IMG/VR virus record: IMGVR_UViG_3300009183_004565
DNA length: 64,000 bases
Origin: a virus
Taxonomy: Duplodnaviria; Caudoviricetes
Strand: one strand, 5' to 3'
In this document: one piece after another, positions 3,085-53,777 of the stretch
Numbering within the stretch: the stretch's first letter is position 1
Layout: each line of letters opens with the position of its first letter
The notes under the pieces: generated by a model
What the model was told of the DNA's origin: nothing
What the model saw: only the letters and a program-made list of their open reading frames with translations
The model's database searches: none
Program-made: the position numbers and the translations under genes

Positions 3085-3135
3085 TAGGATGCTTCGGGTC
3101 CTATAAAACTTGCTTATTTTTAAGGAGAAACTATG
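3085..3135 (+). promoter_or_regulatory. ROSE-like RNA thermometer leader of dnaK
   Basis: 5' hairpin TAGGAT-GCTTCGG-GTCCTA, then CTTGCTTA-TTTT-TAAGGAG pairing the SD with a bulged G. Confidence 0.6.
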
Positions 3136-5019
3136 AGTACAATCATTGGTATCGATCTTGGTACCACCAATAGCTGCGTAGCAGTAATCGAAAACGGAAC
3201 CCCAAAAGTAATTGAAAATTCAGAAGGCGCACGTACTACACCTAGTATCGTTGCCTATACTGCTGAAGAGATTATTGTGGGAGCCGGTGCAAAACGTCAA
3301 GCAGTTACCAATCCAAAAAACACAATCTATGCGTCCAAGCGTTTAATAGGGCGTAAATTTACGGAACAGGCAGTTCAAAAAGATATTGATCTCATGCCTT
3401 ACAAGATCATCGAAAGCGCGAACGGCGATGCATGGGTGTCAGTCAACGACACGGAACTAGCACCTCCACAAATCAGTGCCGAAGTGCTTCGCAAAATGAA
3501 GAAGACCGCAGAAGACTATCTGGGTCATGAAGTAACACAGGCTGTAATTACTGTGCCTGCTTACTTCAATGACAGTCAACGACAGGCAACCAAAGATGCC
3601 GGAGCAATTGCTGGACTAGAAGTATTGCGTATTATCAATGAGCCAACTGCAGCAGCATTGGCATACGGAGTCGATAAAAATGAAAAAGCTGATCGCAAGA
3701 TCGCTGTGTACGATCTGGGTGGTGGTACCTTTGATGTTAGCATTATTGACATTGCTAATGTGGACGGTGATAAGCAATTTGAAGTCCTTTCCACCAATGG
3801 TGATACATTCCTAGGCGGTGAAGACTTTGACCAACGCATCATGGATTACTTGATCACTGAGTTTAAGAAAGAGTCAGGCGTTGATCTTGGTCGAGACGTT
3901 ATGGCACTGCAACGTCTAAAAGAAGCTGCAGAACGTACCAAGATTGAATTGAGTAACAGCACACAAACAGATGTGAACTTGCCTTACATCACAGCAGATG
4001 CTACAGGTCCCAAGCACATGAACATCAAGATGACTCGTGCTAAACTGGAAAGCCTAGTTGATGAATTGATTCAGCGCAGTATTGAACCTTGCCGTGTTGC
4101 AATGAAGGACGCAGGTGTCGTAGCCACGGACATCGATGAAGTTATCCTTGTTGGTGGTATGACACGTATGCCACGGGTTCAGGAAGAAGTTGAAAAGTTA
4201 TTTGGACGAGCACCACGTCGTGATGTCAATCCAGATGAAGCAGTAGCGGTTGGTGCAGCAGTACAAGGTGCTGTACTAGGTGGTAGCCGTAAAGACGTTC
4301 TATTACTTGATGTGACCCCACTAAGCCTAGGTATTGAAACCATGGGCGGCGTGATGACGAAACTAATCCAAAAGAATACCACTATTCCTACCAAGCATAG
4401 CCAGGTATTCTCTACAGCCGAAGACAACCAGCCGGCAGTAACTATCAAAGTCTATCAAGGCGAACGCGAACTTGTACAATATAATAAAACATTAGGTGAG
4501 TTTAATCTAGAAGGAATTCAACCTGCTCGACGTGGTGTACCGCAAGTAGAAGTCACGCTGGATGTTGACGCCAATGGTATTCTTAAAGTAAGTGCCAAAG
4601 ATAAAAGTACTGGCAAAGAAAACCGGATTACTATCAAGTCGGACAGTGGTCTAAGCCGAGAGCAGATTGAAGAAATGATTCGCGATGCCGAAGCTAATGC
4701 AGATGCAGACACAAAGCAACGTGAATTGATCGAAGTACGTAACCAAGCAGATGCAGTTGTCCACAAGATTCAAACTGATATGAAAGAAGCGGAAGGCAAG
4801 CTTTCGGAAGATCAGACGAAACAAATAGATGAGGCAATTGCCAACCTCAACAAGGCAATAGCAGAAACAGACAAAGAACTAATTACCACCAAGGTATCTG
4901 AGTTACTTGTTGCTGCGAATATTATTAATGAACTACAACAGCCGCAGACTACAGAAGAACAGCCCGAGCCTAAGGCCGATGACAATGTGGTTGACGCTGA
5001 ATTTAAAGAAACGAAGTAA
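3133..5019 (+). CDS. dnaK: Chaperone DnaK (Hsp70)
   Basis: [36 protein letters not shown] motifs; diderm-type insert; 628 aa. Confidence 0.98.
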
Positions 5020-36854: not shown

Positions 36855-37457
36855 CTTTCTTGTTCAGGTAGAATACGATCCGGGCACAAACAACTATTAT
36901 GCTCAATTCGCAGATGGTGATACTGTTAATTTAAATGCAAGCAATTATCAGGATGCTGTCATTGAAGCAGATCATATCAATCCGGCCAACTACGAGTTGG
37001 GCTATAACTAATGACTGCCCAGCCTGTCGCCGGCGAACTTGGACCTAAACAGCAAATGGCTGCTGACGGTCCAGACACTGGTCCAGACATGATGATATAC
37101 GTATGCGCCGGGTGCAATAGGCAGTATTATGATACCGGATTGTATTTTTATGGTACGAGTTCTACTCGTTGTATTTGGTGTACTAAATTTCCGAAAGGAT
37201 CTAAAAAATGAGCAAGTTTATTTTGGGTGTAGTGGTTACTTTGGCTGTACTGTATCCGGCTGTGACAAAGAATCTCTTTGGGCAGGCTGTGGATACTACG
37301 CATACCGTGGTTACAACCACTATCGAAAAGAATCAGTGATTTTGGTAATACTGCCGCCAAAAAGAGGTTGACTCAAAGTTCGAAAGGCAGTAATATAGTA
37401 GGACGTTGCAGTGAAGCAACTGGTGTTTTTATCAATTAACTTTATGGAGTATTTCTA

Positions 37458-37781
37458 ATGTCTGACAAAACTTTTAATGTTGGTGGTGTTTCTAAATCTA
37501 AAGGTGGTTACAAAGTTCGTTTTGCTAGCGACATGACTCGTGTCAAGATCCTGGCCAAAACTGATACGGATATCAACCTAGTCGAACTTCCAACAGCAAT
37601 GACCAAGCCTGAGCTGGTCGCGTTCCTTAAAACTTCCGAGCTGTATCTCAAAGCCGAGTACAAGGAAGCAATTGACGCAGCAGATACCAAGTACAACGAT
37701 GCAGGTACTGTCAAGGTCAAAGCTTCGGCGCCTAGCATGGATGCTATCAAAGCCCGTGCTAGCAAGAAGCAGGTCGCTTAA
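37458..37781 (+). CDS. Hypothetical protein
   Basis: GGAG SD, TTGACT promoter upstream, followed by terminator. Confidence 0.65.
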   Translation: MSDKTFNVGGVSKSKGGYKVRFASDMTRVKILAKTDTDINLVELPTAMTKPELVAFLKTSELYLKAEYKEAIDAADTKYNDAGTVKVKASAPSMDAIKARASKKQVA

Positions 37782-37798
37782 TAAATACTAAGCACCGG

Positions 37799-37829
37799 GA
37801 AAAGCGGGCTACGGTCCGCTTTTCTTTTA
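37799..37829 (+). terminator. Intrinsic terminator
   Basis: GAAAAGCGGGC-TACG-GTCCGCTTTTC followed by T run. Confidence 0.7.
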
Positions 37830-38137
37830 TAGGATACTGTAATGGGTAGTGAACAGTTGTACTTTGTAATTGGATTCTTGCTAGGCACTATCATCACAGG
37901 ATGTCTGTGTATGATAGGGTTTATCGTGTGGCATGAATGGTTTTATCGACCACCGCAGCAGGAAGAATAGTGTCAGTGTATGTTTGGACATTGGTAGTTT
38001 TTATATATGCTGATGGAGTATGGCGTGATTGGCGCAGCTACAATCGTCTTGAAGAATGTTTAGAAGCAGCTCATGTTATATCGTATCGTAGAGCAGATGT
38101 ACTTGACGTTAAATGTGAGCGTAGAGAAGTAAAATAA

Positions 38138-38444
38138 GAATTGTTGTAATTCCTTTAAAGCAAAGGCATGTTGGACGGGGTTTCGATACCCCCATCTCCA
38201 CCAGAAGCACATTATGGAGTTACCCGCTACACTACTAAAGGATCGCTACCTTTAGTAATATACAACGTGTGGTAGTGTGTTTCTGATGGGGATGAATTGG
38301 TTTCGACAGCGTGAGATAGTAGAGAAGGCAACACGGTAGGCGATCTCCGTAAAAGAAGCAAAACTCGTAACTGCAAACGATAGTTACTACGCAATGGCCG
38401 CTTGAGCCAAAGCCGGGGGTAGCGCCTTGTTAACCAATAGCTAG
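38138..38444 (+). ncRNA. ssrA: Circularly permuted (two-piece) tmRNA; tag ANDSYYAMAA
   Basis: T-arm and CATCTCC-A-CCA (38177-38203) precede GGGGATG (38288-38294), forming a 7-bp acceptor stem with G3.U70; tag ORF 38373-38405 after TAACT resume motif; 5' boundary approximate. Confidence 0.9.
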
Positions 38445-38469
38445 AATAGGACCTTCGGGTCCTATTTTT
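38445..38469 (+). terminator. Intrinsic terminator after tmRNA
   Basis: AATAGGACC-TTCG-GGTCCTATT-TTT. Confidence 0.85.
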
Positions 38470-38514
38470 GTTTTAGATGTCTAATAGATAAATAGCTAAA
38501 ACGGAGAAAACACC

Positions 38515-38871
38515 ATGGCACAATTGTTTATACTACCTAAATCTGTTCTGCAATACAATGAGCAATCAATTCGGGTCGATTTCTGGGAATGGGCCCAAAT
38601 GACATTATCCACGGCACAATTAGAAGAATTCGAACAGGAAATAAACAGTCATTATTCCTATATAGCGGGATTAATTGAATCCAATAGATATCAAAATGTT
38701 GATTTTGAAGTGTTGCCCAATGGCGACAATTGTGAAGCATTTGTTCTACCTGGTGCCCCTACTGATATTCCCGAAACAGATGCAGCCCGATTAAAATGGG
38801 AAGCAATTTTTGCAGCCGACCCAAATGTTACCTATAGCGGTTCCATGTTTACCTATGTTCGAGATGTCTGA
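38515..38871 (+). CDS. Hypothetical protein
   Basis: TAAATA at 38489, GGAG SD. Confidence 0.6.
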   Translation: MAQLFILPKSVLQYNEQSIRVDFWEWAQMTLSTAQLEEFEQEINSHYSYIAGLIESNRYQNVDFEVLPNGDNCEAFVLPGAPTDIPETDAARLKWEAIFAADPNVTYSGSMFTYVRDV

Positions 38872-38879
38872 TAGTCATT

Positions 38880-39821
38880 ATGGCTATTGGATTAGAACTA
38901 GTCACTAGATCAAATAATTCTAATATTGTTATAGAGTTACTATCAAATAATTTTATTCATGATTTTGTTGTCCAATTAAAACGAAATCATGAATTATATC
39001 CCATAAATTCCTTTAAAGAAATAATACGACCCAAATCTGTAGTACCTTGGAACCAAAAAACAATAGACCAGCTGACAGAAGTTTTTAAAAAAACAATTCG
39101 CGATCTCAACGCATTAGGAGTTTCTTTTCCAGTTACAGAAAATGAAATCATTATTGCCAATAATGCGTATACCAGGGATTTGCTTAATCGATTACACAGA
39201 CATTTTACAACAAGTCATAATAGTGGAAATACTTGGAAGTATGGATCAGACCTGAATTTTGTTGTTCCGGAATCTAAATCAGATGAATGGAAAAAATTAA
39301 TACATGATATAAATCATGCTGTACACGAAATAGAAGTTTATGTTATGACTGAACATATACAAACATTTAAATCGTTATATTTTGAGTATCAAGTAATATT
39401 TGACAGATCAAGCCCAAAGCGTAATGACATGATTCCAGTAGTCACTGGTTACGATCCAAATGGCGGTTATTTTCAAGAACTCAAACAAGAACATAAACAA
39501 TATTTTTCTGACGCACTCGAATACGATGTTTGGTTAACTTTGGATCAAGTGCAAGGAAAAAACTATCACAGATGTTATTTTGAAATGGATGATCCAAGAG
39601 AATGGGATATTGACACTCACGTGGTGTACAGTGGCAGTTTATCATTGACTGATCGTGCTGTAGCCAAGGATCCTCAAATAACCAAATGGTTAAAATCCTA
39701 CGGAATTGAACCTGGCCCGGAACATTGCGGTATGCCAATTGGTAATATTGTCGAAGGAAAAGAAGCAGTCCTGTCTCTAAGAGATCAATCAATTGTTGAT
39801 ATCATAATACACGAAAGTTAA
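38880..39821 (+). CDS. Hypothetical protein
   Basis: 313-aa ORF, no recognised motif. Confidence 0.6.
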   Translation: MAIGLELVTRSNNSNIVIELLSNNFIHDFVVQLKRNHELYPINSFKEIIRPKSVVPWNQKTIDQLTEVFKKTIRDLNALGVSFPVTENEIIIANNAYTRDLLNRLHRHFTTSHNSGNTWKYGSDLNFVVPESKSDEWKKLIHDINHAVHEIEVYVMTEHIQTFKSLYFEYQVIFDRSSPKRNDMIPVVTGYDPNGGYFQELKQEHKQYFSDALEYDVWLTLDQVQGKNYHRCYFEMDDPREWDIDTHVVYSGSLSLTDRAVAKDPQITKWLKSYGIEPGPEHCGMPIGNIVEGKEAVLSLRDQSIVDIIIHES

Positions 39822-39863
39822 ACATCTCTTGCTCTAAATTGAGCTTTTTGCTATAATAAGAGC

Positions 39864-40271
39864 ATGAAAACTCAATTTCAATCTCCCAATCCTGGTTGTA
39901 AAGTTGCTATTACTTTTGAGCTCAATAGCTATGTGCTGGGGCACGAAGGACCTGTTGCTACAACTGTAACAGGCATTGTTGATTCAGCAACTCGATTCAC
40001 CCCACCTAACTTTGTTAGAATCGTGACAGATTTTGATAGCCCTGTGCGTATTCGAGAAATTCCACTAGACCGTATAACTGAAATTAAATACGCAGACGGA
40101 GGAGTTGGTGAGAAGGTACTTGCAAAAGATGCCCCAAAGACCTGGGTGGTAGAAGGTAGCAAGGGATCCAAATATACTGTGGTACGATCTAAGAATATTT
40201 GGACTTGCACTTGCCCAGGTTTCCAATTTCGTAAATCTTGTCGACATGTGACGGAGTTAAAAGACTTATGA
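39864..40271 (+). CDS. SWIM zinc-finger protein
   Basis: WTCTCPGFQFRKSCRH. Confidence 0.75.
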   Translation: MKTQFQSPNPGCKVAITFELNSYVLGHEGPVATTVTGIVDSATRFTPPNFVRIVTDFDSPVRIREIPLDRITEIKYADGGVGEKVLAKDAPKTWVVEGSKGSKYTVVRSKNIWTCTCPGFQFRKSCRHVTELKDL

Positions 40272-40289
40272 TATTACAAAGGATCAATT

Positions 40290-40670: not shown

Positions 40671-40931
40671 ATGGAATACAATAGAGACAATATTGCAGAC
40701 ATGCTGCGCGAAAGTGTATGCGAAGTTACCTTTACTAAAATTAATGGCGAATCAAGAACCATGCCTTGTACACTAAAAGCAGATCTAGTGCCTCCGGTCA
40801 ATGTCAAAGAATTGCGAGAAGAAAGAACTCGTAAGCCAAACCCAGATAATTTAAGTGTATGGTGCACGGATAAGAACGAATGGCGTAGTTTTAAAATTGC
40901 CAATGTTACTCGGGTAGAACGAATTGGATAA
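40671..40931 (+). CDS. WYL_2/DUF2693-like small SH3/Sm-fold protein
   Basis: VTFTKINGESRTMPCTL...VWCTDKNEWRSFK. Confidence 0.65.
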   Translation: MEYNRDNIADMLRESVCEVTFTKINGESRTMPCTLKADLVPPVNVKELREERTRKPNPDNLSVWCTDKNEWRSFKIANVTRVERIG

Positions 40932-53706: not shown

Positions 53707-53777
53707 TATTAAAACACATTTCGAACGGTGAAAGTCCGTCCCAAAGATTTATCTAGGATAGTGTGTTTCAATATGGT

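Follow-up and report, generated by a model that had tools for sequence, protein, structure and literature searches.

Ribosomes that have stalled are set free by tmRNA. According to Keiler, Shapiro and Williams (2000), as that work is cited in later papers (PMC9004378, PMC11915505), permuted tmRNA is cut into two pieces that stay base-paired. The experimental model is the tmRNA of Caulobacter crescentus, for which the cited account describes one precursor that gives an acceptor piece and a coding piece, paired with each other and competent for tagging. The Caulobacter gene is chromosomal, belongs to the alpha lineage, and has been tested, whereas the phage gene studied here is described from its sequence. 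One-piece tmRNAs are carried by phages of the mycobacteriophage Bxz1 group and by Bacillus phage G, and phage DS6A encodes an inhibitory RNA that has the tRNA-like domain only and no tag frame. Like the gene described below, all of these are phage-borne, and they depend on host SmpB, as that gene is predicted to do, but they have the standard gene order and not the permuted one (PMC4131195). The closest described phage systems are the two-piece tmRNAs of aquatic T4-like myophages, namely Methylophilales phage Melnitz and Pelagibacter phages Mosig and HTVC008M (Buchholz 2022, PMC9004378). Of the 133 unique phage tmRNA structures in the same study, 53 were permuted, and 50 of these came from marine or aquatic phages; its Table S1 lists phages of Caulobacter, Synechococcus, Pelagibacter, Roseobacter, Stenotrophomonas, and others (PMC9004378). 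A tmRNA database of 2025 contains 79 phage sequences (PMC11915505).

In the present study, we examined a window of 64,000 nucleotides of viral DNA (IMG/VR record IMGVR_UViG_3300009183_004565), in which a preliminary description, made from the letters of the sequence, had proposed a permuted two-piece tmRNA gene with the tag ANDSYYAMAA on a phage. This proposal was supported by two Rfam models, by covariation in the helices between the halves, and by the phage context and synteny of the locus. The features that had been pointed out (the T arm, the acceptor strands, the CCA, the spacer hairpin, the tag, and the terminator) were all found where they had been placed (Table 1). We consider it highly likely, from comparison of the sequences, that a large uncultured T4-like freshwater phage carries here an ssrA gene of the permuted betaproteobacterial type and that this gene is functional. 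The gene is a real tmRNA gene and probably a functional one. As permuted tmRNAs in aquatic phages have already been published (PMC9004378), it is a fairly ordinary gene, and its only unusual traits are a T-loop that is one base short and a patchwork origin.

In the Rfam scan, the model RF01850 (beta_tmRNA; gathering score 84) matched positions 38089-38469 (+) over its full length (model positions 1-331) with 156.7 bits (E 2.4e-48). The score with RF04321 (tmRNA_permuted) was 141.7 bits at 38142-38405 (model positions 1-213), against a gathering score of 47, so that the comparison with permuted-tmRNA models, which had been suggested as a check, came out in favor of the proposal, with RF01850 scoring higher still. 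No other model of the tmRNA clan scored as high as RF01850 in the window or in any of the 15 relatives with a clan-level match, and these relatives scored 96-188 bits with RF01850. The bacterial beta-type genes used as controls gave 160.7 and 169 bits, comparable to the score of the window gene. As expected for the permuted order, the encoded CCA lies upstream of the GGGGAUG strand, and the spacer separates the two halves.

Table 1. Predicted features of the tmRNA locus and its surroundings (positions in the window)
Feature	Position	Strand	Details
Weak promoter-like pair	38103-38135	+	TTGACG 38103-38108, TAAAAT 38130-38135, 21 nt apart
Probable recombinant block (tRNA-like module and spacer)	38137 to about 38340	+	
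Acceptor piece (3' tRNA-like half)	38142-38203	+	Rfam alignments; covariation in 107 unique relatives
Outer P2 strand, acceptor side	38142-38146		pairs with 38329-38333
Local hairpin in acceptor piece	38152-38166	+	
P2a strand CAUGUUG	38167-38173		pairs with CAGCGUG 38307-38313
T arm	38177-38192		stem GGGGU/ACCCC, loop UUCGAU
Acceptor 3' strand CAUCUCC	38193-38199		
Discriminator A73	38200		
Encoded CCA	38201-38203		
Intervening segment (spacer)	38204-38287 (84 nt)	+	hairpin, -26.9 kcal/mol, z -3.8
Coding piece	38288-38469	+	RF01850 alignment over full model
Acceptor 5' strand GGGGAUG	38288-38294	+	
P2a strand CAGCGUG	38307-38313	+	
Outer P2 strand, coding side	38329-38333	+	
PK1	38333-38356	+	stem 1 ACGG 38333-38336 / CCGU 38347-38350
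PK1 stem 2	UCU 38344-38346 / AGA 38354-38356	+	
Tag reading frame	38373-38405	+	UAACU, then resume codon GCA 38373; ANDSYYAMAA; TGA 38403-38405
3' hairpin of coding piece	38420-38443	+	
Intrinsic terminator	38443-38468	+	11-bp stem, UUCG loop, then T run; last RF01850 helix

Two-piece tmRNAs of the betaproteobacterial lineage, which Sharkady and Williams reportedly described in 2004 (cited in PMC9004378), are represented by RF01850, and their gene order, helices, PK1, resume context, tag pattern, and terminator helix are as in the window. The window gene differs from the bacterial members of RF01850 in that it is located on a phage, its T-loop has 6 nt instead of 7, its spacer has 84 nt instead of about 25-35, and the middle of its P2 can form a local hairpin. 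To compare it with bacterial genes, we used a sample of 401 genomes from the same order as a Noviherbaspirillum genome, which we take to be the GTDB order Burkholderiales. Seven of the 401 gave BLAST matches; these nearest bacterial genes found were only about 73% identical to the window gene and had spacers of 25-35 nt. Like the window, the phages Melnitz, Mosig, and HTVC008M are T4-like aquatic phages with a complete permuted ssrA and no reported smpB. The Mosig ssrA, however, is of the alpha type (RF01849, 67.6 bits) and lies beside a late-transcription accessory gene, whereas that of the window is of the beta type. A glutamine riboswitch has been reported for the Melnitz ssrA and is listed for Mosig (PMC9004378); the Rfam scan gave no riboswitch match at the tmRNA of the window.

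The window has the appearance of phage DNA, with long runs of small ORFs on the same strand, PHROG matches that include a virion structural protein, and a cluster of eight tRNA genes. The best match of the structural protein among cultured phages was to Pelagibacter phage Mosig (Kyanoviridae), at 38% identity. Auxiliary genes for Hsp70, PstS, a phosphate porin, and formamidase are also present; the Hsp70/DnaK gene (3133-5019) is full-length and matches PF00012 with 850 bits. Around the tmRNA gene, the ORFs at 37458-37781, 37937-38137, 38515-38871, and 38880-39821 had no match in Pfam or PHROG and no link to trans-translation. Farther downstream are genes for a small SWIM zinc-finger protein (39864-40271), a homolog of which holds the same position in related contigs, and for a WYL_2 protein (40671-40931). 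Many IMG/VR and metagenome contigs (for example, L353, L302, L303, L339, and L354) align collinearly with the window, with identities of 65-81%, and their tmRNA genes are located between homologs of 37337-38126 and 39824-40272. This conserved position indicates that the tmRNA gene is a stable part of the phage group and not a contamination. A BLAST search of 50,697 deposited phage records gave nothing at E 1e-5, and at E 5 only matches of 49 nt in the T arm to the tmRNAs of Stenotrophomonas phages.

To examine the structure by comparison, we collected relatives with a pattern for the permuted layout, which matched 114 IMG/VR stretches, and compared 107 unique tRNA-like domains. In the window, the acceptor stem is formed between the halves by 7 bp (38288-38294 with 38193-38199) and contains G3-U70, next to A73. 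All seven pairs form in every one of the 107 relatives, with no mismatches, and G3-U70 is kept in 107/107. Pair 5:68 of this stem covaries (G-C in 45, A-U in 36, and C-G in 21), and so does the last pair of the T-stem (G-C in 65, C-G in 24, and U-A in 18). Pairing of P2a was found in 86-100% of the same relatives, with several types of pairs. In the local hairpin of the acceptor piece, a T to C change at 38156 and an A to G change at 38162 jointly preserve a pair; they occur at equal depth in the runs X1 and X5, the latter being a freshwater metagenome, and both are present in contig L038. When the mature pieces were folded as two strands, the acceptor stem, the T arm, and the intermolecular P2 were reproduced, with the fold about 2 sd better than those of shuffled sequences and the register of P2a shifted. 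As this result is modest and the P2a register is displaced, the argument for the structure rests on the comparative evidence instead.

The T arm of the window has a 5-bp stem and a loop of 6 nt, as opposed to the 7 nt of the consensus. The preliminary description had considered the loop to be either short or closed by a mismatch. We ran a T-arm pattern (5-bp stem and 6-nt loop) over IMG/VR and over a set of 185,579 bacterial and archaeal species, each represented by one genome. The pattern matched at least 119 stretches of IMG/VR and was rare in cellular genomes, with 58 stretches among the 185,579 species. Among the matches listed, the closing pair in viral contigs was C-G in 79, U-A in 43, and a mismatch in none; in bacteria it was U-A in 38, C-G in 15, U-G in 3, and C-A in 2. 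As the closing pair covaries and is never mismatched in viral contigs, where it is always of the Watson-Crick type, the loop truly has 6 nt; of the two earlier suggestions, the short loop stands and the mismatch does not. Four genomes of Mesorhizobium, Aliihoeflea, and Aquamicrobium that contain the 6-nt pattern each gave a single permuted-tmRNA match above the cut-off, and thus it is very probably that gene which carries the short loop. The 6-nt T-loop is therefore very probably a tolerated variant that is compatible with function, as it is the probable loop of the sole permuted tmRNA of these genomes.

The true bacterial holders of the 6-nt loop have tmRNAs of the alpha type or of the one-piece form. 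The combination of the beta type with the 6-nt loop was confined to contigs of phages or metagenomes and to tiny contigs of metagenome-assembled genomes that resemble mis-binned phage fragments. Mis-binning of phage fragments also probably accounts for three contigs of 2.6-4 kb with phage-like permuted tmRNAs (L137, L156, and L166), which had been placed in metagenome-assembled genomes of Erysipelotrichaceae, a Lake Erken bacterium, and Thermoleophilia.

ARAGORN, another check that had been suggested for the locus, called eight tRNAs in the window (53.6-59.7 kb) and left the tmRNA uncalled. The same program found 102/104 permuted genes with 7-nt loops (98%), and about 55% overall of the genes with 6-nt loops (70/123 viral genes among the matches listed, and 29/58 bacterial genes). 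Phage tmRNAs with a 6-nt T-loop are thus undercounted in surveys that are based on ARAGORN.

By analogy with known two-piece tmRNAs, the spacer between the halves is expected to be removed on maturation. The base stem of its hairpin resembles the short spacer of bacterial beta-type genes. The inner 56 nt (38216-38271), with TGG at both borders, is an insertion/deletion polymorphism: it is missing from contig L270, which has both halves as in the window and a spacer of 28 nt, and a contig of run X1 skips it at a depth about equal to that of the unskipped form. Elsewhere in about 420 loci, these 56 nt were not found. The contigs L302, L315, L339, L380, and L408, which have the PK1 variant of the window, possess spacers that are far longer than 84 nt and alike one another. 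The 11-mer TAGTGTGTTTC has exactly two copies in the window, one at 38273 in the 3' arm of the spacer hairpin and one at 53759 in the 3' arm of a hairpin that trails tRNA-Leu (53707-53777). Both hairpins start directly after a CCA end and have CACATT in common on the 5' arm; they may have a processing signal in common or a common origin.

In the coding piece, PK1 is maintained by compensatory changes. Its stem 2, UCU/AGA in the window, occurs in relatives as UGA/UCA, UCG/UGA, and AGA/UCU, which makes four combinations, and 12/13 unique combinations were fully paired, whereas 1000 shuffles gave 3.9 on average and never more than 8. The tag had been described as distinctive, a judgment that did not hold, as the same tag is present in related contigs and fits the AND...A(L/M)AA pattern that is usual for beta-type tmRNAs of bacteria and phages. 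ANDSYYAMAA is unchanged in L353, with one synonymous change, and in L297 and L374, with two synonymous changes each. From 190 permuted tmRNAs we collected 86 unique tags; 79 of these begin with AND and nearly all end with AA, the endings including ALAA (43), RLAA (13), and AMAA (5). The tags of bacterial beta-type genes include ANDENFAMAA, ANDENFALAA, and ANDESYALAA. Judged by these sequences, nothing sets ANDSYYAMAA apart from the other tags of the family.

Upstream of the tmRNA gene, a sigma-70 scan called no promoter; the promoter-like pair in Table 1 was not called because its spacing is too long. Contig L112, which has the spacer of the window together with a T arm with a 7-nt loop, contains a better-spaced TTGACG/TACAAT at the equivalent place. 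Inspection of the upstream region by eye found no T4-type late or middle promoter motif. Transcription may start at a promoter of its own or, equally possibly, run through from the upstream ORF, whose end is at 38137.

We judge it very probable that the window gene is a recombinant, a patchwork in which the tRNA-like module and the spacer appear to have come in from another phage tmRNA lineage, while PK1, the tag, and the 3' module would be the version native to the phage group of the window. Over the block from 38137 to about 38340, the window shares 97-100% identity with the tmRNAs of five phage contigs (L038, L053, L110, L114, and L255), in which the spacer is 83/84 identical. The flanks of these contigs are unrelated to the window, the identity collapses past 38345, and their tags are ANDSYYGEDRLAA or ANDNYYGEDRLAA. 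In contrast, the tag module of the window is 95% identical to that of the collinear relative L353. In a three-sequence breakpoint test of the window, L038, and L353, from which the spacer was removed, the best of about 55 candidate breakpoints was located between 38328 and 38345 (Fisher P 1.5e-9 for this best candidate). To the left of it, the window agrees with L038 at 28 sites and with L353 at 2; to the right, it agrees with L038 at 7 sites and with L353 at 28. Both strands of PK1 stem 2 lie on the right of the breakpoint, so that the paired partners moved together.

The patchwork might instead have been made by the assembler, through a switch between the tmRNAs of co-occurring phages inside the shared block of about 210 bp, in which case no single phage would have the gene in the form given here. 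The same samples do contain several variants side by side, branch points of Logan contigs lie at 38192, 38281, 38299, and 38344, among the matches listed no contig spans 38345 with 31 nt on each side, and the exact combination of the window is present in no other contig of about 420 loci. However, in run X1 one unbranched contig (37985-38209) runs from the upstream flank into the acceptor piece and another (38364-38700) from the tag module into the downstream flank, and run X5 carries 38415-38678 with zero differences. As both flanks are collinear in the relatives, one tmRNA gene between them is the simplest path. Discordance between the modules, moreover, recurs in other contigs from independent samples. 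For this comparison, we used 137 unique phage or metagenome tmRNAs. Among the pairs with tRNA-like modules at least 95% identical, 10/86 had message modules less than 70% identical; conversely, 14/52 pairs with message modules at least 90% identical had tRNA-like modules less than 85% identical. The correlation between the identities of the two modules was 0.36. An assembly artefact is thus an unlikely explanation, and we favor recombination in the phage genome. For the broader proposal, that the tmRNAs of freshwater phages evolve as two swappable modules (a tRNA-like module of both acceptor halves, the T arm, P2, and the spacer, and a message module of the 3' strand of PK1, the tag, and the 3' hairpins), with the combination of 6-nt loop and beta type seen only on phage-like DNA, we regard the chances as about even.

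Three other views of the gene were considered. In the first, the tRNA-like domain serves as a decoy; it would sequester SmpB (or AlaRS or EF-Tu) of the host and block trans-translation there, as has been reported for the DS6A RNA. In favor of this view, tmRNA in E. coli is inhibited by a molecule of the DS6A type (PMC4131195, PMC11915505), the window gene has an atypical T-loop, and no SmpB of the phage was found in the window or in two tmRNA-carrying phage contigs (see below). A decoy would not need the message half, yet PK1 is preserved by compensatory changes and the tag frame by changes that are synonymous only, within a family of tags with the nearly uniform ends given above, and some free-living bacteria very probably have the 6-nt T-loop in their sole permuted tmRNA. 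We consider a decoy very improbable. Slightly less improbable, but still with little to recommend it, is the view that the gene is a passenger, a bacterial ssrA captured recently that plays no part in the infection. Small, fast-changing accessory ORFs without assigned function surround it, and its Rfam score equals those of bacterial genes; however, its position is retained in relatives of which the flanks are only 65-81% identical, intact relatives with covarying helices are present in more than 100 IMG/VR contigs, and the nearest bacterial genes found are so distant (only about 73% identical) that the capture was not recent. The gene could also be a fragment of a host ssrA left at a prophage attachment site after imprecise excision, as integration into tmRNA genes is common and fragments of such genes can be present on phages (PMC4383910, PMC9004378). 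Here, the whole gene is present, with both halves, the tag, the terminator, and a full-length model match, and the phage is of the T4-like kind, with its best cultured match in Pelagibacter phage Mosig of the Kyanoviridae; such a remnant is hardly conceivable. A working tmRNA gene of the phage remains our preferred reading.

The preliminary description had noted that the window contains no smpB, and we confirmed this: the best E value obtained by tblastn with three SmpB proteins was 1.7, and an HMM built from three sequences gave no match. SmpB was likewise absent from two tmRNA-carrying IMG/VR phage contigs, namely G403 (357 kb, rated complete), which has weak DNA similarity to the window and little in common with it beyond the tmRNA, and G402 (261 kb, rated 74% complete), which is 71-74% identical to the window. 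In the control search, SmpB was detected in 10/14 reference genomes. From these results, we infer that the phage RNA must rely on the SmpB of the host.

By analogy with the two-piece tmRNA of Caulobacter, the window gene would be expressed as a single transcript from about 38140 to the terminator at 38468. Host RNase P would cut on the 5' side of G38288, 3' trimming would halt at the encoded CCA (38203), and the 84-nt spacer would be discarded. The resulting acceptor piece of about 62 nt and coding piece of about 180 nt would be held together by the 7-bp acceptor stem and the long P2. Host AlaRS would charge the acceptor piece, in which G3-U70 and A73 are present, and host SmpB and EF-Tu would bring the RNA to ribosomes stalled on broken mRNAs. 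Translation would resume at GCA 38373, ANDSYYAMAA would be added, the ribosome would be released at the TGA codon, and the tagged protein would be passed to host proteases of the ClpXP or ClpAP type. The likely benefit, again by analogy, would be that ribosomes are kept free while the phage degrades host mRNA and transcription of the host ssrA falls.

Contigs from two RNA runs matched the window only at 38297-38364, with 90-95% identity, and then continued into sequence unlike the window. Owing to this divergence, they represent relatives and are neutral with regard to the expression or processing of the window gene. In run X20, a riverine metatranscriptome, we observed a contig, aligned at 38297-38365, of a related phage-type tmRNA with a tag that begins ANDAFYGE and with spacer sequence upstream of GGGG. 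The spacer-containing contigs of relatives in RNA libraries could be precursor RNA or contaminating DNA.

The beta type of the gene points to a betaproteobacterial source. In the case of phage Melnitz, it was found that the type of the tmRNA need not match the host (PMC9004378), and recombination in the tmRNA gene of the window further weakens the use of its type to deduce the host. Internal recombination would likewise make a tmRNA tree unsafe for inference of phage hosts and host switches, as made for phage Melnitz. Our literature search found no report of recombination within tmRNA genes; this recombination and the short T-loop are the only possibly new points of the present study, and they are modest ones. 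The window adds a well-documented example of the beta type to the known phage-borne two-piece tmRNAs. If the exchange of modules is selected, a phage could match the charging and SmpB machinery of its host separately from the host proteases that recognize the tag. A phage tmRNA that works with host SmpB would be a simple system for asking why large lytic phages invest in ribosome rescue.
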